This document shows, piece after piece, positions 31,451 to 40,655 of a DNA stretch of 64,000 nucleotides. Source of the DNA: Maribacter sp. 2-571 (GTDB lineage Bacteria > Bacteroidota > Bacteroidia > Flavobacteriales > Flavobacteriaceae); NCBI RefSeq assembly GCF_050589625.1, contig NZ_JBNGOP010000003.1, positions 87,023-151,022 on the forward strand, written 5' to 3'. The position numbers and the translations under genes were made by a program. Below the pieces are notes generated by a model. That model ran no database searches. It saw nothing but the letters and a program-made list of their open reading frames with translations, and had not been told where the DNA came from. Position 1 is the first letter of the stretch, and each line of letters starts with the position of its first letter.

Positions 31451-32557
31451 CTACTTGTTTACAGCAAAAATCTCTTTTAACTGTTTGACCATACCCCCGT
31501 TCCCGGAGACGGTGATCTCACCAATCTTTTCGGCGATTTTCTCCACATATTCCATCTCTTTCAACTTGAAGAGCATTTCGTTTTCTTCCATTAGTTTAGC
31601 GGTGTTCAGCAAACTTCGGGTAGAAGCGGTCTCTTCACGTCGTGTAATGGTATTGGCCTGTGCCTGTTTTTGTGCCACAAGCACTTGGTTCATGATAGCC
31701 TTCATTTCACCCGTTAAGATGACATCTCGGATACCACAGTTCAGTACTTGTACGCCCAGGTCGGCCGCTGTTGTCTTGATTTCGGAAAATACCGCATCGG
31801 CGATGCGTTCCTTTCGCTCTAACAGCTCATCCAAGGTATAGGTGCCTATGTAGGCACGCAATACCAATTGAATGGCAACATATAACTGCTTTTCGTAGTC
31901 TTTGTTTTCCAACAAGGCCTTTTCAATAGCAACTACTTTATACTGGGTATAGCAGTTGATTCGAATAGCGGCCTTGTCCTTGGTCAACAATTCTTGCCCT
32001 GAGATCTCGAGTTGCAATTGTCGCATATCGGCGCGTGCAATCTTTACCGAGGTATCGTTTTTCCAGAAGTGGTATACCCCACTGTCCAGAACCTTCACGA
32101 AGGTATCCTCGACCAGTAACAGCGCTTTTTCGTATGCCAAAATCTCCAATACACGAATGTAAGGGCGCAGCAACGGATGGCCTAGCAGCATTTTGCCAAT
32201 GGGTTCGGTGATGTAGATTTTACTTAAATCGGCCATCACGAACTCATAATTGATCAATCCTTTCCAGAAAGCATATTTACCGGCTGCAAGCACTTTTTTC
32301 AAAGTCCCGTTTTCAGATACCAATGCCAACTCCGCATCTTTTACCTCGATAACGTGCAATAGTGCCTCCAAACCTTGGTCCTGTAGCAAAATCTCCAATG
32401 CTATCGGGGCCACAAAGGCTTTGGTGAGGTCGTATACCATGACCATGTTTCGTAGGCCTACCCAGTGTGTGCCTTGGGTAATAACGTTTTGGTAATCTCC
32501 ATTTTTGAAGACCAAACCTACTTTTCCTGCATTGATTCGTACTCGTTTCATCATCAT
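31451..32557 (-). CDS. SPFH/band-7 (slipin/flotillin-like) domain protein
   Basis: 368 aa; band-7 core followed by a long coiled-coil C-terminal region (VAQKQAQANTITRREETASTRSLLNTAKLMEENEMLFKLKEMEYVEK). Confidence 0.75.
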   Translation of the reverse strand: MMMKRVRINAGKVGLVFKNGDYQNVITQGTHWVGLRNMVMVYDLTKAFVAPIALEILLQDQGLEALLHVIEVKDAELALVSENGTLKKVLAAGKYAFWKGLINYEFVMADLSKIYITEPIGKMLLGHPLLRPYIRVLEILAYEKALLLVEDTFVKVLDSGVYHFWKNDTSVKIARADMRQLQLEISGQELLTKDKAAIRINCYTQYKVVAIEKALLENKDYEKQLYVAIQLVLRAYIGTYTLDELLERKERIADAVFSEIKTTAADLGVQVLNCGIRDVILTGEMKAIMNQVLVAQKQAQANTITRREETASTRSLLNTAKLMEENEMLFKLKEMEYVEKIAEKIGEITVSGNGGMVKQLKEIFAVNK

Positions 32558-32940
32558 TTTAAATTTGTGTCCGCCTCGCCGGTGACGGACGAACGGGTTA
32601 AACTATCATCATATATTTTAGTTGTTTCTTTTGTTTAAAAAACCGCAGCTGTGGTTCATCCATCGACTACGGAAATATTGGTTTTTGAAGTGTCGGATGA
32701 TTTGTTTTTTAGTATGCTTCCATCGGCTTTGCCAAAGGTGTTCATTGGTTTTTTCCAAGGGAGGGATATTCAAAAAGAAATGACCTTCCACATCAAATAG
32801 TCAACATTTCAAGGTAGTATTAAGACTGTTTGCCTTTCCGAAGAAAAGCCGACCGATCCATAACTACGGTTTTTTGTCATTTTAAGTCTAACAGGACTTG
32901 GAGACCAGTTTTAAAAGATGGTCGGCTTTAGAAAATGGAT

Positions 32941-33115
32941 TTTCAGTCCATATCCCACGTTATGAGCGTGGTGCTCTACCAACTGAGCTATCCCGATGCT
33001 GGCGGGAGCAGGAGTCGAACCTGCGCATCCTTCTGTTGTTCTAACCTAACTGAACTACGGTTCCAAATAGAACCGACGGGATTCGAACCCGTGACCGACA
33101 GATCTGAGACCATTT
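32941..33115 (-). pseudogene. Cluster of scrambled tRNA gene fragments (Asp-type 3' half, Asp-type 5' half, a 3' T-arm/acceptor fragment, an anticodon-CAT tRNA lacking a matching 3' acceptor)
   Basis: Minus strand reads ...GGTCACGGGTTCGAATCCCGTCGGTTCTA-TTT-GGAACCGTAGTTCAGTTAGGTTAGAAC-AACAGAAGGATGCGCAGGTTCGACTCCTGCTCCCGCCA-GCATCGGGATAGCTCAGTTGGTAGAGCACCACGCTCATAACGTGG... The acceptor halves do not pair within any unit. Confidence 0.6.
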
Positions 33116-33159: not shown

Positions 33160-34500
33160 CCTAATACTTCTCAGTAAGACTTCACACAATAGTGCTATAC
33201 AGAAACACCCAACAAGACCCGCTTGATACTTTATTCCCGCGAAGGCGGGAATCTTTTACGATTTCCCTATGCGAAGCGTAGGCCTCGCCATGGAATCTTA
33301 TCTTTCAATGAACTTTAATAAACCTGGCAACACGCCTTGTTGCTGCGAGGCACCCCCGCAAACCACGATAAGCTGCGGTTTGCACTATATTTTAAAAAAA
33401 CGTGCTGGGAATACCCACGCTTATGGACAAGCTTTCGTAGGAGTATGGCGAACGCTTTCCCTACTTTTCCACGCGCCTTCCGTTGCTTTGGAAATTGCGT
33501 ACCTGTCCGATGCCAAATACATTGTAGCCGTTCGGCAACTTAGACCCGGCCTGCATAGCGGTTTTTGGCCGCGCTTTGCAATTACGGGGGTTGGCTCCCC
33601 CACCGTTCACAGGTGTCCCCTTGCGGGGCGACCTATTGGAATGTTCACCGCATGGTATCGGCTTGCGACCGCTACCACCCCATATGTTACAATGGGTTTA
33701 GGCAACTACTAGCTGCTACAATGCCCGAAGTCTTTCGCTTTTTATGTTCTATAAAATTTTGGAAAAAAGTCTAGTAACAATTAATCATTTGACCTGGAAG
33801 AAGGGCTTCGAGAATGGCTCCGTAGATTTTGGCCTACAAAATACCAACCTTCTTCCTGTAAGCTTCCCAGCTTACGGCAGTTCCAGCCACCGAACAGTTT
33901 ACCTGTCGGGTTACTTTTATGCTGTAATCGGCACCGTTAAATCGGATGGTTTAAGCGTTACCGAGAACTACAACTTTTCCTGTTGGTGTCTCCACCGCAA
34001 GCCTACTTTTGGTCGGCTATATTTTTCTAAGGCCTCTCAGCGGTCGCCCCTGAGGCCTTGTAAAAATATGTTGGTTGCTTGCTTACCTGTACTCCCCCCG
34101 AAGGGGATAGTCTCCATTTGCGAGGCCCGCAAATAGATTTATCCTTGTTACCAAGTTTATCTAAGGACGATAAGCCGCCCCGTCATTTACAAGAAATGAC
34201 GATTTTTTTCGTAGAAGCCCATGATATGGACTCCTTTTTATTTCAATGAACTTTAGTTGAGCCTCACAACACTCCTAGTTGCTGCGAGGCACGCTCACAA
34301 ACCTCTTTTTAAAAGGCTTGTTTTTAAATACTGGGCAAAATTGAATCATAACTACGCAATTATTATGCGTAGATATTTTTTTTCATCGCATTACTTCTGC
34401 GTCGTCACGCTGAGCCTGTCGAAGCGCATTTCATTTTTGCTCGCCCCTCGACAAGCTCGGACTGACAATGCGTTGTTCATTTGACCATCTTTATTGCGGT
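33160..34500. other. ORF-free, hairpin-dense region of about 1.3 kb containing a duplicated ~90-nt motif (TTTCAATGAACTTTA...GTTGCTGCGAGGCAC) at ~33294 and ~34225, each followed by a plus-strand terminator-like hairpin
   Basis: No credible ORF. Many perfect hairpins (ggcctctcag...ctgaggcc, gtaagcttcccagcttac, ccccgaagggg). Terminator-like hairpins at 33365-33405 and 34352-34384 on the plus strand. Confidence 0.4.
34352..34384 (+). terminator. Rho-independent terminator (plus strand) inside the noncoding region
   Basis: CTACGCAATTATTATGCGTAG hairpin followed by ATATTTTTTTT. Confidence 0.5.
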
Positions 34501-34509
34501 CTTTTCTTT

Positions 34510-34594
34510 GGGTGTACTCCGGTCCCGACGCTTCGGGAGAACCCTGTTCTTCCCATTCACAGTGGGACGCTTTACCAGATAAGCTAGAGACACC
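34510..34594 (-). ncRNA. tRNA-like element, anticodon GTG (His-like), T-loop replaced by a TCCCGA-AGCG-TCGGGA hairpin; the most degenerate member
   Basis: Manual fold: acceptor GGTGTCT/GTACACC (one mismatch); anticodon arm TCCCA-CTGTGAA-TGGGA; then GTTC plus hairpin. Confidence 0.35.
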
Positions 34595-34599
34595 ATTTG

Positions 34600-34671
34600 A
34601 AGATCCGAAAGGAGTTGAACCTTTACGCCAAGGATCAAAACCTTGTATGCTAACCGTTACATCACGGATCT
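34600..34671 (-). tRNA. tRNA-Gln (anticodon TTG)
   Basis: AGATCCG-TG-ATGT-AACGGTTA-GCAT-A-CAAGG-TTTTGAT-CCTTG-GCGT-AAAGG-TTCAACT-CCTTT-CGGATCT-T; all stems pair. Confidence 0.8.
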
Positions 34672-34676
34672 ATTTG

Positions 34677-34748
34677 TACTCCATAAGGGAATCGAACCCT
34701 TGTCTTCCGATAGAAAGTCGGATGCACTAGCCACTATGCTAATGGAGC
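34677..34748 (-). tRNA. tRNA-Glu (anticodon TTC)
   Basis: GCTCCAT-TA-GCAT-AGTGGCTA-GTGC-A-TCCGA-CTTTCTA-TCGGA-AGAC-AAGGG-TTCGATT-CCCTT-ATGGAGT-A. Confidence 0.8.
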
Positions 34749-34754
34749 ATTTCT

Positions 34755-34848
34755 TCTGAGAAGCAACCCCGATGCTTCGGGGGAACTTGCGACCTCCCGC
34801 TTCCAAAGCGGGTAAACATCTCCCGAAGCTTCGGGATTATCTTCCCAG
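34755..34848 (-). ncRNA. tRNA-like element, anticodon TGG (Pro-like); both the D-arm (TCCCGAAGCTTCGGGA) and the T-loop (CCCCGAAGCATCGGGG) are replaced by palindromic hairpins
   Basis: Acceptor CTGGGAA/TTCTCAG; anticodon arm CCCGC-TTTGGAA-GCGGG; T region GCAA-G-TTC-hairpin-TTGC. Confidence 0.4.
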
Positions 34849-34852
34849 TTTG

Positions 34853-34936
34853 CAGTACCGACGGCCCCGAAACTTCGGGGGAACCCGTACCTTCCCGATA
34901 GACAGTCGGGCGCTCTAGCCTTTGAACTACGGTACT
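34853..34936 (-). ncRNA. tRNA-like element, anticodon GTC (Asp-like), canonical acceptor/D/anticodon arms, T-loop replaced by the CCCCGA-AGTT-TCGGGG hairpin
   Basis: AGTACCG-TA-GTTC-AAAGGCTA-GAGC-G-CCCGA-CTGTCTA-TCGGG-AAGGT-ACGG-G-TTC-[CCCCGAAGTTTCGGGG]-CCGT-CGGTACT-G; acceptor stems perfectly complementary. Confidence 0.5.
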
Positions 34937-34939
34937 TTG

Positions 34940-35010
34940 CGCGTCCGTAAGGATTCGAACCTCAATCCTAGGTTTTGGAGACCCAGATGCTGCCATTACA
35001 CCACAGACGC
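34940..35010 (-). tRNA. tRNA-Trp (anticodon CCA)
   Basis: GCGTCTG...TGGGT-CTCCAAA-ACCTA-GGATT-GAGG-TTCGAAT-CCTTA-CGGACGC-G; short D-arm but all stems pair. Confidence 0.75.
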
Positions 35011-35014
35011 GTTG

Positions 35015-35108
35015 TGGAAGCAGTAGCCCCGACACTTCGGGGGAACCTACATGTCATTTCTGAACCTGATTTACAGTCAGGCGAGCCAGCCAGTTGCTCA
35101 ATGCTTCC
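35015..35108 (-). ncRNA. tRNA-like element, anticodon GTA (Tyr-like, type II with long variable arm), T-loop replaced by the CCCCGA-AGTG-TCGGGG hairpin
   Basis: GGAAGCA-TT-GAGC-AACTGGCTG-GCTC-G-CCTGA-CTGTAAA-TCAGG-[variable arm]-GTAG-G-TTC-[hairpin]-CTAC-TGCTTCC-A; acceptor and D-stems perfect. Confidence 0.55.
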
Positions 35109-35117
35109 AAAATTTCA

Positions 35118-35243
35118 GAGACAAGGATGAGATTACTCACGCTATCTCTATTCTTTCTTAAGTAGTTCGTGAATGCTTTGCATTTCGAACTTATAAAAAA
35201 TGGTTTTGCAGGCCATTGCCTTAACCATTCAGCCACCTTGTCT
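35118..35243 (-). ncRNA. Degenerate tRNA-like element (possible GCA/Cys-like anticodon) with a ~75-nt hairpin-rich insertion in place of the T-arm
   Basis: Acceptor AGACAAG/CTTGTCT pairs perfectly; D-arm GGCT...; anticodon region AATGG-CCTGCAAAA-CCATT; remainder is nested hairpins. Confidence 0.25.
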
Positions 35244-35249
35244 ATTTGG

Positions 35250-35346
35250 CGGAGGGTAAAGCCCCGACGCTTCGGGGGAACCTTCACTACCTTTGGTAGA
35301 CTCGCTTAGCAGGCGAGCGCAACAAACCAGTATTTGCCTACCCTCC
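35250..35346 (-). ncRNA. tRNA-like element, anticodon GCT (Ser-like, type II long variable arm CTACC-AAA-GGTAG), T-loop replaced by the CCCCGA-AGCG-TCGGGG hairpin
   Basis: Acceptor GGAGGGT/ACCCTCC perfect; anticodon arm CTCGC-CTGCTAA-GCGAG; T region GAAG-G-TTC-hairpin-CTTT. Confidence 0.5.
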
Positions 35347-35527
35347 AGTCACTTCAGCCGTGGCCCCGACACTTCGGGGGAACCCACACGAGACTGGTTA
35401 CTCCGAAAACTTTTAACTCCATCATTTCTACTTTCATAGGTCTCGTTGAATTCGCAAGCTCATTTCAAGAGTGTGGCCACCGCCCTTTGGCTTGCCCTTC
35501 CTTTTTTCAAAAAATAATGCGCATAAA

Positions 35528-35557
35528 AAAAGCATCTCTTTATCGGAGATGCTTTGT
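35528..35557. terminator. Bidirectional rho-independent terminator hairpin
   Basis: AAAAAAAGCATCTC-TTTATCG-GAGATGCTTTGTATAT: 7-bp GC-containing stem flanked by an A-run and a T-run. Confidence 0.5.
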
Positions 35558-35759
35558 ATATATGTGAATGTTGTCTATGACGTCAACACATGATACACGT
35601 ATTTCTCCTTTGTTTACAAATGGACAGTTGATGACTATAAAACCGTTCAAACCATTTCGGCGAACAGCGATGTAGTTCCGCTAATTGTATATGTCTTTTT
35701 AAAAATTCCATTTGTAATAGATTTATACTTTATGACGATGCAAACCTAAAAATGATTTT

Positions 35760-35997
35760 TAGATTACACAAGAAAAAATCAATTTAATTTATTGATAATC
35801 AGGTAGTTATAATTAAAATTTGAGTAATAAGGTTCCTGTCCGTCATATTGCGGATTTTGAATATTTTACACAATCGCCTGTCTACCAATTGTTTCGTGTT
35901 TCAACTAGCTATTCTTGTATTTTTCTACTTCTCATTCAATGGTTAAAATTATTCCATAAAAAAAGCGTCCAATTCAAATTGGACGCTTTCTTTTTAT
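35760..35997 (+). repeat. Copy 1 of a ~230-bp intergenic repeat (promoter-like TTG...TAnnTTTG, ~170 nt, terminator hairpin AGCGTCCAATT/AATTGGACGCT)
   Basis: Direct nucleotide similarity to 39990-40225 (shared ...AATCAATTTAATTTATTGATAATCAGGTAGTTATAATT..., CCTGTCCGT, CAAATGG, CATAAAAAAAGCG-CCAAT...TTGGACGCT). The ORF-track ORF 35820..36008 contains the terminator and is probably not coding. Confidence 0.6.
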
Positions 35998-36170
35998 CGC
36001 TTAATTAAGTCATTTCATAGAATCAACTACTGGATAAAGTCACAAAACGCCCGTTTCGTTCACTATATTCCGAACGAAAATGGTCAAGGCTGAGCCCTAT
36101 ATGTGGGGTGATATGTAACTTTCTCTGTTTCATTTGTACTACAAAGATGTAATTTTTAAACGTTTCGATA

Positions 36171-36719
36171 TTAATTTTTATGCTTTTTCTTTCTCTTTTT
36201 TGAAGAGTACTGCCTCTTTTTTACTTTGGATTTATCCCATTTCAACTTCTTCTTGACCCTGTTCTCCTCTTCTTCGATAAAGGAAAAGTAATCATCATTG
36301 AAAGCATGTTTTTTGGCCTTCTTCAGTTGTTTTATAGCAGCCTTATAATCTTGTTTGGTTTCCGCCGCATACGCGGAAAGCCAAAATAGACTTCCTTTTG
36401 CTATTCCCTTTATACTGAAAGCAAAGGCGATAAGTTTTGCTGCTCTATCGATTTCATCGGCCCAAATAAGGTATTTTGTATAAACAGGATAAACAGTTGT
36501 ATAATCACTGTTTATTGCGATTACTTTATCAAAACAGGCAAAAGCTTCGGCATACCGATTCAAGTTACCAGCATATACTTCCCCCAAAAGGCAAAGTGCC
36601 GCACAATGGTTTTCATCGTAAGACAGGGCATAATTTAATGATTCACAAACTTCGTCCCAGTCATAACCCGATGCCGCCTTGGCTTTTAAATAATAGGTGT
36701 CGGCTATTGTCAATCCCAT
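36171..36719 (-). CDS. TPR-like repeat protein with a highly basic C-terminal tail ([16 protein letters not shown])
   Basis: 182 aa, helical repeats; start overlaps the prfH stop by 10 nt (translational coupling). Confidence 0.55.
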
Positions 36720-37402
36720 TGTTGTTTTTTTAGATTGTTCTTATACTTCTGCCGTATGGCTTTAAAGCTTTTGTTCTTTTTTTGATGTTTGAAGTCGGTT
36801 CCTTTAAAGACCCGAACCGGATTTCCCCGTTGTAGCTTCAAATGATTTTCCCATTGGTCCGATATACTGTTTTTCAACTGCCGAAGGTTGGCCTCGTTCA
36901 CCTTTTCCTGTAACCGGGTTTTTGCCAGTTTTTTATTTTGGTGCTGCGACCTGTTATCCATGGCAACGACCTGAATTCCCGTCGGATGATGAGTGGCCCT
37001 AACCGCAGAGTTGACCTTATTTACATGCTGCCCACCAGGCCCTGTGCTTCTCATGGTTTGAAAAGAGATATCGTTATCCTTAATTGCTGTAGGGTTCAAC
37101 AGTTTCAGTTCAAAAACGCCGATGAACCAGTTTTTTCGTTTATGGTACTTTCGAAAATTTGAGGTGCCGATCCATTGAATGGTTCCTAACCACGTTGCTA
37201 AAAAAGTATTTAGGGTACTCCCTGTCAGCCCAATGGTGACCGATTGTACCGTGCCGTTTTGAGAACCTTTTTCCTGATGAAGTATGGCATATTGCAATCC
37301 TTCTGCCTTTACTTCCTGCAAGAATAGCTTTAGCACTTGGGAAACGACCCAGCAACATTCTGCCGGGCCTCTTCCTGCTGTAATTTGTAATATCTTTTCC
37401 AT
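36710..37402 (-). CDS. prfH: Peptide chain release factor H (PrfH; RF2-like, lacking domain 1)
   Basis: 230 aa with the GGQ motif ([25 protein letters not shown]), immediately downstream of the RtcB gene, as in the classical prfH-rtcB pair. Confidence 0.75.
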
Positions 37403-37426
37403 TGTTTTTAGTTTTATTAGGTATTA

Positions 37427-37525
37427 AGTACTGAGTACTTAGTACAAAGTATTTTGAATACCTTCTCAATACTCAATACTCAATACTCAATACTCAATAC
37501 TCAATACTCAATACTCATATCTCAC
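37427..37525. repeat. Heptanucleotide microsatellites in the rtcB-prfH intergenic region: (AGTACNN)x4 followed by (TCAATAC)x7-8
   Basis: agtactgagtacttagtacaaagtatt ... tcaatactcaatactcaatactcaatactcaatactcaatactcaatactcatatc. Confidence 0.85.
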
Positions 37526-37532
37526 TACTATT

Positions 37533-38924
37533 TCATTTATCCATTCGTACTATTTTAGGGGTAAAGGTTCCAAGTACTTCAACCAATTCTTGTTGATTCG
37601 CCATGACTTTTTCTATGTTTTTATAGGCCATCGGCGCTTCGTCTATTCCCCCGCCAATGAGGGTTACTTCATTGGCGTTCAATTGTTTTTTAATCTCGTT
37701 TTGGGTAAAGGTCTCCTTACACTTTCGTCTTGAAAAAAGACGCCCTGCACCGTGGGAGGCGGATTGTAAGCTCGCTGCATTTCCCAAACCTTTTACGATG
37801 TAACCCGGTGCCGTCATAGATCCGGGAATGATTCCCAGTTCGCCTTTTGCAGCCGGAGTCGCTCCTTTTCTGTGTACGATACACTCCTCACCGTTTACCT
37901 CTTGTTTCCAGGCAAAATTGTGATGGTTCCGTATCTTGACTATTGGTTTTGCTCCTAAAAGCTTGGCCAGCCTAGTATGAATATCATCGTGGCATGCGGT
38001 AGCGTAATCGCCCGCCAAACGCATCGCCAACCAATATTCCTGTCCGTCATGAGTATTTAAATCCAACCATGCCAAATGCTGTACGTGTTTGGGCAAGGGA
38101 CATTGCTTAGTGGCCAAATACGTGTACTGTTTTGCAATGTTCGCACCAAGGCCACGCGACCCGCTATGGGAAAGTAGACCGAGATATTCCCCCGATTTAA
38201 GTCCCCATTCGTTATCGTCGTCCGTAAGGGTTACCGTACCGAATTCAACAAAGTGGTTTCCTCCACCTGAGGTTCCCAACTGCTTGTACGCCTTGTCCTT
38301 TAGTCTTTTTACGAACGGTATATTTTTAAATTCTTCTCGCTCAAAGATTTCATGGTCATGCTTTATCCGATGCGTTTCCCGCATTCCGAACTTGGTATGT
38401 TCGGAAAGCATGTTCGCCAATTGATGCTTCTTTCCTTTAAGGTAGGAAACCGCAATAGGATAAACGGTCAAACACATACTACAGCCAATATCGACTCCTA
38501 CACCATAGGGGATTACCGCATTATGGGTCGCCAAAACACCCCCGATCGGCAGGCCATACCCGCTATGGGCATCCGGCATTAGAGCACCAGCTACGGAAAT
38601 CGGTAATTTTAGGGCATCGTACAATTGATACTTGGCTTGTTGCTCAATTTCATTTTCACCGTATATCCGAAAAGGAGCGCGTACCGTTTTGAGTTCCTGT
38701 TTTTTAACGATGACCGGGTCCAATAAACTTTCGGCTATCTTTCCCCACACGGCATCACCGCTATAGTCTTCGGGGTGCAACAACACTTTTTTGGCTTCCG
38801 TCAATACCTGCGCTTTCTTTTTTCGCTTATGGTACCTGTTGATCTGGCCCAAGGTGATGTTTATACTATTGTTCTTTGGAAAACCTAATTTGATCAGGTC
38901 CTTCCCGCTTAATTTTTTTCCCAT
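37533..38924 (-). CDS. rtcB: RtcB-family RNA 3'-phosphate ligase (release-factor-H-coupled RtcB2 type)
   Basis: 463 aa; conserved RtcB motifs MPDAHSGYG, GGGNHF, NHHNF and SHGAGR (metal and GTP-binding His/Cys residues). Confidence 0.8.
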   Translation of the reverse strand: MGKKLSGKDLIKLGFPKNNSINITLGQINRYHKRKKKAQVLTEAKKVLLHPEDYSGDAVWGKIAESLLDPVIVKKQELKTVRAPFRIYGENEIEQQAKYQLYDALKLPISVAGALMPDAHSGYGLPIGGVLATHNAVIPYGVGVDIGCSMCLTVYPIAVSYLKGKKHQLANMLSEHTKFGMRETHRIKHDHEIFEREEFKNIPFVKRLKDKAYKQLGTSGGGNHFVEFGTVTLTDDDNEWGLKSGEYLGLLSHSGSRGLGANIAKQYTYLATKQCPLPKHVQHLAWLDLNTHDGQEYWLAMRLAGDYATACHDDIHTRLAKLLGAKPIVKIRNHHNFAWKQEVNGEECIVHRKGATPAAKGELGIIPGSMTAPGYIVKGLGNAASLQSASHGAGRLFSRRKCKETFTQNEIKKQLNANEVTLIGGGIDEAPMAYKNIEKVMANQQELVEVLGTFTPKIVRMDK

Positions 38925-39694
38925 GATATTTCGTCTTTTAGTAATTGGTGAATGGAATATTTTCTAAGGTTTTGGACATCTTTTTTAATTTTTCTGTTCC
39001 GTTTTTTCACTTCTTCTACCTTCCACCAATCGTTCCATTTGTCTAGTTTTTCATTCGTTTCGTAATAGCCATGCTTTTTCATTTGCTGTCCCAATAGCGC
39101 ACTTTCACTTTCCAGTTTTGGGTCAATGCGTTTGCTATGGGTGATAAAGGCTCTGGTAAATCGGATCCGATATGCCCCTCTCGGGATTTTTACATAGTAC
39201 CGGAGTCTCAATTTTTTACTTTCCACCATATAGTGGAAAGGCATGCACAGTAATTTTGCTTTATCGCTCAATCGATTGTACTGTTTTTTGCTAATGGTCG
39301 GAATTTCCTTGTTGATCAAATATTTTGAAGTTTGATGACGCCACTTTTTTTCCGCTTCTTCTTTGGTGCGTCCCCAAAATAGTTTTTCCACCTTATCGTA
39401 CACCTCTCTTATAGCGGCACCATTTTTATAGTGCTCCACGCCATGGGTGATGATAATTTCTTTAAACCAACCATGTCGAATAGGCTTCTTTAACTCGATA
39501 AACCCCAGTGCATTTTTTTCTGCCCATAGTTGACCTAGTCTCTTTCGAATACGACGAATTTCTTTCGCTCTTTTACATTTGATATGTGGGGGTTTCACGA
39601 CACATCCGTTTTTAGGGTTGCATTTTTTTAAAATCAGGTTGCTGCATCGTTCGATGCCAAAATCGTTTGCGCAATGGCATTGATTTTGTTTCAA
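38909..39694 (-). CDS. Hypothetical Cys-rich, highly basic protein translationally coupled to rtcB
   Basis: 261 aa; N-terminal CHC...C...C..C...C (CHCANDFGIERCSNLILKKCNPKNGCVVKPPHIKC) zinc-ribbon-like cluster; Lys/Arg/Trp-rich; 16-nt overlap with the rtcB start. Confidence 0.5.
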   Translation of the reverse strand: MKQNQCHCANDFGIERCSNLILKKCNPKNGCVVKPPHIKCKRAKEIRRIRKRLGQLWAEKNALGFIELKKPIRHGWFKEIIITHGVEHYKNGAAIREVYDKVEKLFWGRTKEEAEKKWRHQTSKYLINKEIPTISKKQYNRLSDKAKLLCMPFHYMVESKKLRLRYYVKIPRGAYRIRFTRAFITHSKRIDPKLESESALLGQQMKKHGYYETNEKLDKWNDWWKVEEVKKRNRKIKKDVQNLRKYSIHQLLKDEISWEKN

Positions 39695-39989
39695 AACCCG
39701 GTTTTATCGCATTTTCGACCCTTAGGACGAAAATTTTGTATGTAAACTGGGTTAAATGATCCTAGTATAAATCCCGGAAAGTCCTGCCTTTAAAAATCAG
39801 GCATAAAAAAAGTCCGAAACGTTTGGGCTTCGGACTTTCGATCATAGGCTATGGTGGCATTATGTATTGTAGAAGTCCTGAAGCGACACCAATAAAGCAC
39901 CTGGTGCTTTTAGTGTTTTTCGATATGTATTTATAAAAGTCATACTACTTCAGTTAAAAATGGGAGTGATTAATTTTGATGCAAATCTA

Positions 39990-40228
39990 AAACGCTTTTT
40001 TGGATTTACCAAATTAAAATCGATTTAAATTACTGATAATCAATTAGTTATATTTAGGTCAAGACACAGCTGTCCCTGTCCGTTTTGGAACGGATAGCAG
40101 CATATTTCATGAATTTGCTGTTTATCAAACGATTAGCTTTCAAATGGCATCCTTTTGAAATTTGGAGAATTCCCAAAAAAAATTACATAAAAAAAGCGCC
40201 CAATTTCTTGGACGCTCCAGTTATGTAT
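39990..40228 (+). repeat. Copy 2 of the ~230-bp intergenic repeat (promoter-like element, ~170 nt, terminator hairpin AGCGCCCAA/TTGGACGCT)
   Basis: See copy 1. The ORF-track ORF 40085..40327 overlaps it and is probably not coding. Direct orientation relative to copy 1, so together they bracket the rtcB-prfH cassette. Confidence 0.6.
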
Positions 40229-40367
40229 CAGTTTTCAATAGTACCTACCCATCAATTTGATGCAATCCCAGCTTTTCGGCGTCCGATATGTGATGAAAAC
40301 AATTTGGCATGTACTATATTTTTATAATTAACTTTTAAAATTCAACGATTAAAATGTGGCATGGCAC

Positions 40368-40655
40368 CTATAATATCGCTATTACTTTACCATACACATT
40401 TTTGGTCCATCCATTAATTCTACCGTGATTGTTGCCAATAAGCAGACCACGTTTGTTGTTTTTCCCTTTAACAAGATGTGTAAAGACGTTTCCACGTACT
40501 TTACAATACACAATGTCACCTACCTCACAATCTTCCCAACCAATGGGCGCAATGCGCACCGCTTGTTTCGATTTTAAAAGGGGCAACATAGAATTGCCGG
40601 GTTCTTTTGAAATGATGGTCTCACCATCCTGTAATTTTTGAATTTTCCAATTCAT
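40368..40655 (-). CDS. Small S24/S26-family peptidase-like protein (LexA/UmuD-like catalytic domain only)
   Basis: 95 aa; GNSMLP (compare the GDSMEP Ser-nucleophile motif) and a downstream Lys (KVRGN). Confidence 0.4.
   Translation of the reverse strand: MNWKIQKLQDGETIISKEPGNSMLPLLKSKQAVRIAPIGWEDCEVGDIVYCKVRGNVFTHLVKGKNNKRGLLIGNNHGRINGWTKNVYGKVIAIL

Follow-up and report, generated by a model that had tools for sequence, protein, structure and literature searches.

Two related stretches beside the rtcB-prfH operon of Maribacter sp. 2-571 are probably minus-strand control regions rather than small-RNA genes

Two similar stretches stand at the two ends of an rtcB-prfH gene cassette in a 64,000-nucleotide (nt) piece of the Maribacter sp. 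2-571 genome (contig NZ_JBNGOP010000003.1, positions 87,023 to 151,022; hereafter the window), and the question they raise is what such a pair is for. A sequence-only reading of this DNA had described a two-copy element with a Bacteroidetes-type promoter and a strong terminator hairpin, and had proposed that each copy encodes a small RNA (sRNA) of 150-180 nt running on the plus strand from an AT-rich block to the hairpin. Our analysis indicates that the stretches are probably two copies of a minus-strand control region, composed of a terminator, two hairpins and a promoter, and not sRNA genes. The element appears to be the upstream half of a conserved module, seemingly not described before, by which Bacteroidota would control translation-repair genes and reserve tRNAs. 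We consider it likely that the whole forms two paralogous leader-attenuator modules, copy 2 serving an operon for a 261-amino-acid (261-aa) protein, RtcB, PrfH and a TPR protein, and copy 1 serving a tRNA array, with read-through when translation is slow.

The repeat itself is genuine, since both blastn and MAFFT find the two copies at the positions first proposed. Positions 35737-35815 (copy 1) and 39978-40056 (copy 2) are 77% identical over 79 nt (E 2.7e-12; MAFFT, a repeat finder and blastn). The hairpin parts also match, 35945-35987 with 40179-40216 at 81% by blastn (E 1e-4), and MAFFT and the repeat finder pair the hairpin regions 35945-35974 and 40176-40205; both matches are collinear, with an offset of about 4235 nt. 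When 35700-36010 was compared by blastn with the whole 64-kb window, copy 2 was the sole match, and no third copy was found there. The terminal hairpins that had been claimed are real (35958-35993 and 40193-40218), as is the conserved block, but the left edge of the latter lies about 20 nt further out, at 35741 and 39982, where the block ends on the minus strand in TAGGTTTGCATC and TAGATTTGCATC, respectively. Of two islands said to be shared, CCTGTCCGT is real and kept in homologues, but CAAATGG is unaligned between the copies. The promoter and the strong terminator hairpin were likewise borne out, though both are read on the minus strand. The parts of the two copies are as follows (class a denotes copies ahead of protein-coding units, class b those ahead of tRNA arrays; T0 is the predicted upstream terminator, H1 and H2 the two hairpins).

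35955 to 35992, minus strand: predicted terminator T0 of copy 1, AAAGCGTCCAAT-loop-ATTGGACGC followed by UUUUUUU-AUG, with G.U and compensatory changes in the stem.
35870 to 35892, minus strand: H1 of copy 1, a 7-bp stem ACAAUUG/CGAUUGU with the 9-nt loop GUAGACAGG, from covariation and the fold of the window sequence.
35835 to 35855, minus strand: H2 of copy 1, AUCCGC...GACGGA and then the invariant GGACAGG, from covariation.
35793 to 35801, unstranded: palindrome TGATTATCA of copy 1, part of TTGATnATCAA, its centre some 61 bp ahead of the predicted start.
35741 to 35771, minus strand: predicted promoter of copy 1, with -33 TTG at 35771-35769, a 20-nt spacer and -7 box TAGGTTTG at 35748-35741; start predicted near 35736.
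40186 to 40218, minus strand: predicted T0 of copy 2, GGAGCGUCCAA-GAAA-UUGGGCGCU followed by U7-AUG, downstream of a conserved 95-aa gene.
40098 to 40119, minus strand: H1 of copy 2 in its class-a form, hairpin CAGCA...UGCUG, from the fold of the window sequence.
40075 to 40094, minus strand: H2 of copy 2, AUCCGU-UCCAAA-ACGGA and then GGACAGG.
40034 to 40042, unstranded: palindrome TGATTATCA of copy 2, from the alignment of homologues.
39982 to 40013, minus strand: predicted promoter of copy 2, with -33 TTTG at 40013-40010, a 20-nt spacer and -7 box TAGATTTG at 39989-39982; start predicted near 39977.

T0 of copy 1 is predicted to end the 261aa-rtcB-prfH-TPR operon and to open the copy 1 module, and the CCTGTCCGT island is the 3′ arm of H2 plus GGACAGG seen on the opposite strand.

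The minus-strand polarity of promoter and terminator is well supported by comparison with about 60 homologous copies from Flavobacteriaceae genomes and metagenomes. At least seven U within the next 8 nt follow T0 on the minus-equivalent strand in 53 of 54 homologues, as opposed to 2 of 54 on the plus strand. In the window both hairpins run on the minus strand into UUUUUUUAUG, which is what had been seen as a flanking A-run; the flanking T-run, read on the plus strand, exists in copy 1 only. All copies carry the promoter motif TTG-N20-(T/C)AnnTTTGCA on the minus strand, pointing leftward and away from the hairpin, and all conserved downstream features (a leader open reading frame (ORF), a second terminator, tRNA arrays and rtcB/prfH genes) are on the minus strand, as are all neighbouring genes. 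Among the non-Watson-Crick cells of H1 and H2, G.T outnumber A.C by 55 to 25 when scored on the minus (gene) strand, a moderate bias that is not corrected for phylogeny.

These observations bear directly on the idea that each copy is a plus-strand sRNA of about 150-180 nt, transcribed from the AT-block promoter to the GCG(C/T)CCAAT hairpin, which we now regard as highly improbable. Copy 1 has something of what this would require, namely TTG-N19-TAAAATTTG on the plus strand and a hairpin followed by TTTCTTTTT; but the second box of the TTG-20-TAaaaTTTG arrangement noted there is one base too long, the arrangement is missing from copy 2, and copy 2 lacks both a plus-strand -7 box and a T-run after the hairpin. 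The plus-strand promoter motif is conserved neither in the homologue alignments nor even between the two copies. The H1/H2 region of copy 2 folds well by itself on the plus strand (z -2.6), and the hairpins are near-palindromes which can fold on both strands; single-sequence folding of the window copies does not discriminate between the strands. Terminator polarity, promoter strand, downstream features and the wobble bias speak against a plus-strand sRNA. The ORFs at 35820-36008 and 40085-40327 were correctly suspected of being non-genes, as they show no conservation. Rfam adds no family on either strand: with Rfam 15 only tRNAs reached the gathering threshold in the 64-kb window, and in E-value mode all matches in 35400-36200 and 39700-40380 were far below threshold and terminator-driven. 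Riboswitch, T-box, Y RNA, ribozyme and Pedo-repair-type motifs were considered and set aside, with no Rfam match at gathering or E-value level.

How widely the arrangement is conserved was addressed in two ways. Species-representative genomes scanned at the protein level with the 261-aa sequence yielded 14 loci in Flavobacteriaceae, among them Tamlana, Thalassobellus, Wocania, Aquimarina, Flaviramulus, Tenacibaculum, Winogradskyella and Lacinutrix, and 12 of these 14 were positive with an nhmmer profile of the element (19 copies in these loci plus the window). Six loci and the window have two copies each, an 'a' copy just upstream of the 261aa-rtcB-prfH-TPR operon and a 'b' copy just downstream of it, itself upstream of a same-strand array of 11-17 tRNA genes. 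Across genera a copies group with a and b copies with b, with the same differences between the two everywhere, and this implies that the duplication is old and that both copies are under selection. The second scan, of metagenomes with the palindrome-promoter pattern alone, returned 101 stretches, and 49 of them contain the element in full, T0 through promoter. Those of the 49 with enough DNA beyond it to judge are all followed within about 200-450 nt by a same-strand tRNA array (3-18 genes) or by rtcB, prfH, TPR or 261-aa genes. The module is conserved in Flavobacteriaceae and other Bacteroidota.

The same comparisons make it barely credible that the copies are att- or attC-like boundaries of a mobile or recombining cassette around rtcB-prfH. 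Direct repeats with hairpins in each do flank the cassette; but a and b are orthologous across genera and keep their mutual differences, single copies without a partner occur in front of arrays or operons, every R1 match is inside an element copy, no integrase or transposase is adjacent, and neither integrase-type sites nor extra copies were seen, with no third copy in the 64 kb by blastn. Of the regulatory or recombinational roles suggested for these flanks, only the former is supported.

The remaining stretches from the metagenome scan, roughly half of the 101, have no T0, H1 or H2 and are ordinary gut or rumen Bacteroidales promoters in front of unrelated ORFs. It follows that TTG...TAnnTTTGCA is a generic promoter and TGATTATCA-RTAAATTA a generic upstream element, and that the parts specific to this system are T0, the next ~130 nt and the leader. 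The promoter has the form of a standard Bacteroidetes/flavobacterial sigma-A type, TTG-N20-TAnnTTTGCA; scored against the flavobacterial consensus, whose -7 box TAnnTTTG is at -12 to -5 (PMC9723704), it matches at 8-9 of 9 positions in 60 of 60 copies, and the 20 nt between -33 TTG and -7 TAnnTTTG in both window copies are within the ~19-21 nt expected. The palindrome TGATTATCA is a candidate protein-binding or upstream promoter element. As a separate observation, gut and rumen Bacteroidales carry a multi-copy promoter cassette, AAAGTTAGYCAAAGTTAAACTRT-TGATTATCARTAAATTA...TACCTTTGCAATAGATAATTAAAAC, before many different ORFs, with up to three copies per contig (L023, L026, L032, L036, L045, L047, L079, L082, L099, L101 and L107 in our numbering of loci), and this cassette has the TGATTATCA-RTAAATTA motif of the element studied here.

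What lies downstream of the promoter is a leader of about 200 nt in which a short ORF precedes a strong terminator, T1. The corresponding features of the window, with the units that they precede, are these.

35583 to 35711, minus strand: predicted leader ORF b, 42 codons, MEFLKRHIQLAELHRCSPKWFERFYSHQLSICKQRRNTCIMC, ahead of the tRNA array.
35522 to 35555, minus strand: T1 of copy 1, proposed attenuator, AAAGCAUCUCC-GAUAA-AGAGAUGCUUU followed by U7, just upstream of the tRNA array.
34500 to 35495, minus strand: tRNA array, proposed target of copy 1, orthologous to the 14-tRNA array of metagenome locus L098.
39860 to 39943, minus strand: predicted leader ORF a, 27 codons, MTFINTYRKTLKAPGALLVSLQDFYNT, ahead of the operon.
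39803 to 39838, minus strand: T1 of copy 2, proposed attenuator, AAAGUCCGAAGCC-CAAA-CGUUUCGGACUUU followed by U7, in front of the operon.
36171 to 39694, minus strand: operon of the 261-aa gene, rtcB, prfH and the TPR gene, proposed target of copy 2.

All 64 distinct leaders have an ATG ORF of at least 24 codons with its stop 8-45 nt before T1, compared with 6.7% of shuffled leaders, and a scan of 68 leaders located T1 in 62. Class-a ORFs have 24-29 codons and class-b ORFs mostly 34-46; the 5′ untranslated region is variable (14-130 nt), and the distance from the stop codon to the T1 arm is conserved (16-41 nt, mode 25-27 nt). The two classes differ in sequence: T1 is AGUCCGAAGCC.../...GUUUCGGACU and the peptide ends in ...LRDYF in class a, and T1 is AAGCACCUCC.../...GGAGGUGCUU with a peptide containing QHI...RSPK in class b. 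Like T0, T1 has the hairpin and U-run of an intrinsic (Rho-independent) terminator and is predicted to act as one. The final codons of the ORF are complementary to the 5′ arm of T1 and can therefore form an antiterminator. In class a the mean duplex is -13.9 kcal/mol versus -6.2 for shuffles, with z at -3.9 and below -2 in 97% of copies, and some 10 nt separate the end of the antiterminator strand from the stop codon; the signal is weaker in class b (z -2.1). RNAfold gave the alternative helix in 29 of 29 class-a and 10 of 10 class-b leaders folded, and in the window's own leaders, where the 5′ strand of the predicted antiterminator is the codons LQDF of leader ORF a (GCUUCAGGACUU, 39884-39873) and where GGAGA at 35608-35604 in leader ORF b can pair with the T1 5′ arm. 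Compensatory changes connect antiterminator and T1 arm: three lineages show GAC/GUC changed to GAU/AUC, and one shows GCUUC/GAAGC changed to GUUUC/GAAAC. A mid-ORF hairpin, often with U's after it (GAGAAC..GUUCUUUU in class a; UUCG-C-CGAA inside leader ORF b), is a candidate pause site. Finally, 24 of 26 arrays have their first tRNA 3-33 nt past the T1 U-run, a distance so short as to suggest that the arrays have no promoter of their own and are transcribed only by read-through of T1.

This combination, a short ORF between promoter and terminator and an antiterminator, incompatible with the terminator, one strand of which lies within the ORF, is that of a leader-peptide attenuator, which we regard as well supported computationally, with the weaker pairing in class b. 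Flavobacteria are known to use leader-peptide attenuation and to show partial termination at intrinsic terminators (PMC9723704). We propose that T0 would close the upstream unit and that the promoter downstream of it would fire leftward into the leader. In a cell with healthy translation the ribosome would follow the polymerase to the leader stop codon and cover the antiterminator strand, T1 would form, transcription would stop and the unit would be off. If ribosomes were damaged, or tRNAs cleaved or scarce, the ribosome would be late or absent, the antiterminator would form first and the polymerase would read on, in copy 2 into the 261aa-rtcB-prfH-TPR operon for ribosome rescue and repair, and in copy 1 into the reserve tRNA array. 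The duplication would put both units under the same logic; H1, H2 and the palindrome may supply a second signal at the DNA level or belong to an RNA that arises when T0 is read through. RtcB2-PrfH is reported to rescue and re-ligate ribosomes cut by colicin E3 (PMC9304027, PMC9223846), and Flavobacteriia PrfH-CT also rescues intact stalled ribosomes (PMC12829566).

Several points weigh against this account. The class-b antiterminator is short (5-7 bp), and its z is below -2 in only 42% of copies. There is no run of regulatory codons or of codons for one amino acid in the leader peptides (QH(I) recurs near the class-b N-terminus), and the enrichment of N/K/Q/R/E/H/Y/D in their first half is weak, 0.46-0.47 versus 0.36-0.40 expected. 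The conservation of the peptides (LRDYF, RSPK) may partly reflect RNA structure rather than coding, and as the sequences are related, the shuffle statistics overstate their independence. Both the transcription start and the translation of the leader ORFs are predictions from sequence, as is termination at T0 and T1. Furthermore, H1 and H2 covary as RNA hairpins and yet are situated about 90-150 nt upstream of the predicted start, and their fixed spacing (~41 and ~39 nt) also fits proteins bound on one face of the DNA.

The last two points concern the ~130-nt stretch between T0 and the promoter, in which H1 and H2 accompany the invariant motifs AGACAG and GGACAGG. T0 itself is a GC-rich hairpin whose stem pairing is kept through G.U and double changes in the homologue alignment, and a distant soil subgroup has a T0 of different sequence at the same position. 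H1 is a 7-bp variable stem with a 9-nt loop in which AGACA is invariant in 29 sequences; H2 has 5-6 bp (UCCGU/ACGGA) and a loop of 3-8 nt, with the invariant GGACAGG directly after it. In a covariance-model alignment of 46 distinct copies, paired cells amount to 82.5% versus 31-43% with slid partners, double changes occur in 10 of 12 pairs (in H2 pair 64-71, for example, UA 21, CG 13 and GC 1), and the observed score was reached by none of 500 shuffles. Class-a copies, among them 12 from metagenomes that were folded as a separate subgroup, differ in the sequence of H1 and possess an additional hairpin; compensatory changes in the class-a H1, judged by eye and uncounted, are seen between ACAGTTAT/ATAGCTGT in L001a and ATAGTTAT/ATAACTAT in L008a. 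Two further features tried here were rejected: a GACAG-TTGTC pairing after H2, as the partner varies and GGACAGG is invariant, so that there is no helix; and a small ORF across H2 (MFIIRSYTDR... in some b copies), whose frame is broken by indels elsewhere and which has no ATG in the window.

In view of the covariation, the segment separating T0 from the promoter might work as a minus-strand RNA, transcribed either past T0 or from a promoter that went unrecognised, which in a long isoform of the leader would serve as a structured sensor or protein-binding domain modulating the attenuator or the fate of the transcript. This would add to the attenuator rather than replace it, and we hold it to be conceivable though somewhat doubtful. 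The stems vary around an invariant H1 loop, G.T exceeds A.C on the minus strand, and the variable length of the H2 loop, which a dimeric DNA operator could not tolerate, together with the conserved H1 loop argues for a folded strand; partial termination products past intrinsic terminators are also common in a flavobacterial transcriptome (PMC9723704). However, the hairpins follow a strong terminator and precede the predicted start, with no conserved second promoter between T0 and H1 (a score of 8/9 in 12 of 60 copies versus about 10% of shuffles, driven by T-runs), no pairing partner in the leader was found by eye, and the strand bias is moderate and, as said, uncorrected.

The fixed helical spacing of the motifs argues instead for proteins on DNA. 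AGACA is followed after 41-42 nt by GGACAGG, this after 38-40 nt by TGATWATCA and the latter after 57-58 nt by TTTG, with about four helical turns between the first three sites; the distance from palindrome to -7 box is 57-58 nt in 59 of 60 copies and the palindrome centre is near -61. A DNA-binding regulator, analogous to TrcR of Anabaena, could thus act on AGACAG/GGACAGG and/or TTGATnATCAA as the main switch, with T1 leaky and the ORF incidental; the Anabaena regulon of a tRNA array and rtcB with shared promoter repeats provides a precedent. We think this unlikely as the main switch. The palindrome with its RTAAATTA tail also occurs at unrelated gut Bacteroidales promoters and may be generic, no regulator gene is conserved beside the module, and such a switch fails to explain the ORF in 64 of 64 leaders, the fixed distance from ORF to T1, the covariation of the antiterminator and the promoterless gap between T1 and the array. 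A regulator could, nevertheless, act together with attenuation.

Comparison with known systems helps to place the proposed attenuators. They resemble the trp, his, phe and thr leaders of Proteobacteria, the Bacteroid-trp leader and the amino-acid leaders predicted in Flavobacterium psychrophilum (PMC9723704) in having a promoter, a short ORF, a mid-ORF hairpin, promoterless structural genes and mutually exclusive antiterminator and terminator with one antiterminator strand inside the ORF. Unlike them, they lack repeated codons for a single amino acid, they precede a rescue and repair operon and a tRNA array rather than biosynthetic genes, and their geometry predicts read-through when translation is generally slow or absent; there is no sequence or Rfam match to them either, those to Phe_leader and Thr_leader being far below threshold. 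In the erm, cat/cml, bmrCD and vmlR/ARE-ABCF leaders, the state of the ribosome on the leader ORF selects terminator or antiterminator and impaired translation induces; these leaders, in Firmicutes and others, respond to drug-stalled ribosomes at specific peptide motifs. The switch we propose would likewise be set by the state of the ribosome, but its outputs are RtcB, PrfH and tRNAs, it is found in Bacteroidota, and we identified no stalling motif.

The closest functional analogy is with Anabaena sp. PCC 7120, in which the supernumerary trn L-array and rtcB are silent until translation is impaired and are then co-induced, through shared promoter repeats bound by the RHH (ribbon-helix-helix) repressor TrcR, in a regulon that also includes a slipin/SPFH gene (PMC8421152, PMC10272220). 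Here, too, a long same-strand tRNA array and rtcB carry copies of one shared regulatory sequence, and an SPFH gene is next to the arrays. The resemblance is one of function only: the module in Bacteroidota is a ~300-nt terminator-hairpin-promoter unit plus leader ORF and terminator without sequence similarity, no TrcR-type repeats (TGTAGTAT-like) lie over the -10 box in the alignments, and no RHH/TrcR-like gene is among the neighbours tested. The rtcBA operons of E. coli and Salmonella, under RtcR and sigma-54, and the YrlA/B Y RNAs by rsr-rtcBA likewise combine dedicated regulation with non-coding RNA elements beside an RtcB operon. In this case, however, the sigma-54 -24/-12 spacing is missed by one base (GGACAGG-N7-TTGY); a sigma-54 promoter at GGACAGG...TTGY was rejected, since it reads GG-N9-G(C/T) instead of GG-N10-GC and GC is often GT. 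Among neighbours and in Rfam scans we found no RtcR, Rsr/TROVE gene or Y-RNA.

The genes of the operon, and the conserved gene upstream of copy 2, are the following.

38909 to 39694, minus strand: 261-aa protein of no known family, first gene of the operon.
37533 to 38924, minus strand: RtcB.
36710 to 37402, minus strand: PrfH (TIGR03072, 246 bits).
36171 to 36719, minus strand: TPR protein, last gene of the operon, in which only TPR repeats are recognised.
40368 to 40655, minus strand: conserved 95-aa gene, upstream of copy 2.

Searches of the 261-aa, 95-aa and TPR proteins against Pfam, NCBIfam and PADLOC (and, for the first two, PDB sequences) returned TPR repeats only. The 95-aa ORF contains GNSMLP, a motif reminiscent by eye of S24 (LexA/UmuD-type) peptidases, but neither Pfam, NCBIfam nor PDB sequences gave a match. 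Its identity in five related loci is 81-89%, and in three of these (L002, L003 and L008) it stands immediately ahead of the 'a' copy. Between prfH and rtcB (window 37451-37536) the 7-nt unit CTCAATA is repeated in tandem, reported as 5 copies, each of 30 nt, at a spacing of 14 nt, and the gap varies from ~0 to ~2200 nt in related loci. A compact variant in L018, L037, L042, L065 and L083 consists of the element, a class-a leader, a TPR gene and the tRNA array without rtcB or prfH in between, and as the TPR gene there directly precedes the array, the 182-aa TPR protein seems closely tied to the arrays. A second, distant RtcB paralogue (25-31% identity) is usually found on the same strand about 0.5-4.5 kb upstream of the element, and an SPFH/Band-7 gene (62-86% identity) usually downstream of the arrays (neighbourhoods of L001-L008, L027, L039, L055, L066, L070 and L071; window 31451-32557).

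The tRNA array of the window has changed considerably from the canonical array of L098, to which it is orthologous with 88-94% identity. Lys, Leu and Leu are missing, and only Trp, Glu and Gln are called as (canonical) tRNAs. In six others (Ser-UGA, Ser-GCU, Tyr, Asp, Pro and His) the 3′ part of the T-loop is replaced by a 16-nt near-palindromic hairpin, YCCCGAAGNNUCGGGR (YCCCGAAGNNTCGGGR), and in Pro the same palindrome is also in the D-loop. The sites, all on the minus strand, are 35364-35379, 35262-35277, 35027-35042, 34865-34880, 34767-34782, 34523-34538 and 34821-34836. The array contains the motif seven times and the remainder of the window does not contain it at all (0.02 expected), and it is absent from 115 other loci and viral contigs; its removal as a single intron restores no T-loop. 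The hairpin-bearing array could represent either decay or remodelling into tRNA-like decoys. If remodelled, such reserve tRNAs, their T-loops turned into hairpins, might serve as decoys for toxins that target tRNAs.

Other peculiarities of this region can be mentioned. Two insertions of ~51 nt, at ~35414-35463 and ~35134-35184 (minus strand), look alike by eye, with an AAATG start and GC..ATTCA.CGA..AC in common, and in comparison with L098 one splits the anticodon loop of tRNA-Ser(UGA) and the other the T-loop of tRNA-Cys. Another two-copy repeat, 33298-33364 and 34236-34303 on the plus strand (20 nt at 90% plus 42 nt at 83%), is upstream of small plus-strand ORFs; two ORFs neighbouring it have homologues downstream of arrays in L022 and L056. 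A weak Rfam tRNA match of 36 bits at 32927-32997 (minus strand) is uncalled by ARAGORN.

In the literature that we searched we found no description of such leaders before rtcB-prfH or tRNA arrays; the regulation of RtcB2-PrfH is unaddressed there, and for 'cryptic' tRNA arrays only the control in Anabaena, by a repressor, has been investigated. It is tempting, if tentative, to see in this module a 'translation-damage response' of Bacteroidota, in which a duplicated cis-acting module gauges translation on a leader ORF and reads into the RtcB-PrfH operon and the reserve tRNAs, with H1/H2 as a new cis-regulatory RNA or nucleoprotein providing a second input. Should the attenuator prove true, Bacteroidota would tie repair and tRNA arrays directly to the performance of the ribosome, which would explain how the arrays can be silent and yet kept. 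The module would then be a compact and portable sensor of translation stress, whose triggers (colicin-like rRNases, anticodon nucleases or antibiotics) could be tested with reporters.

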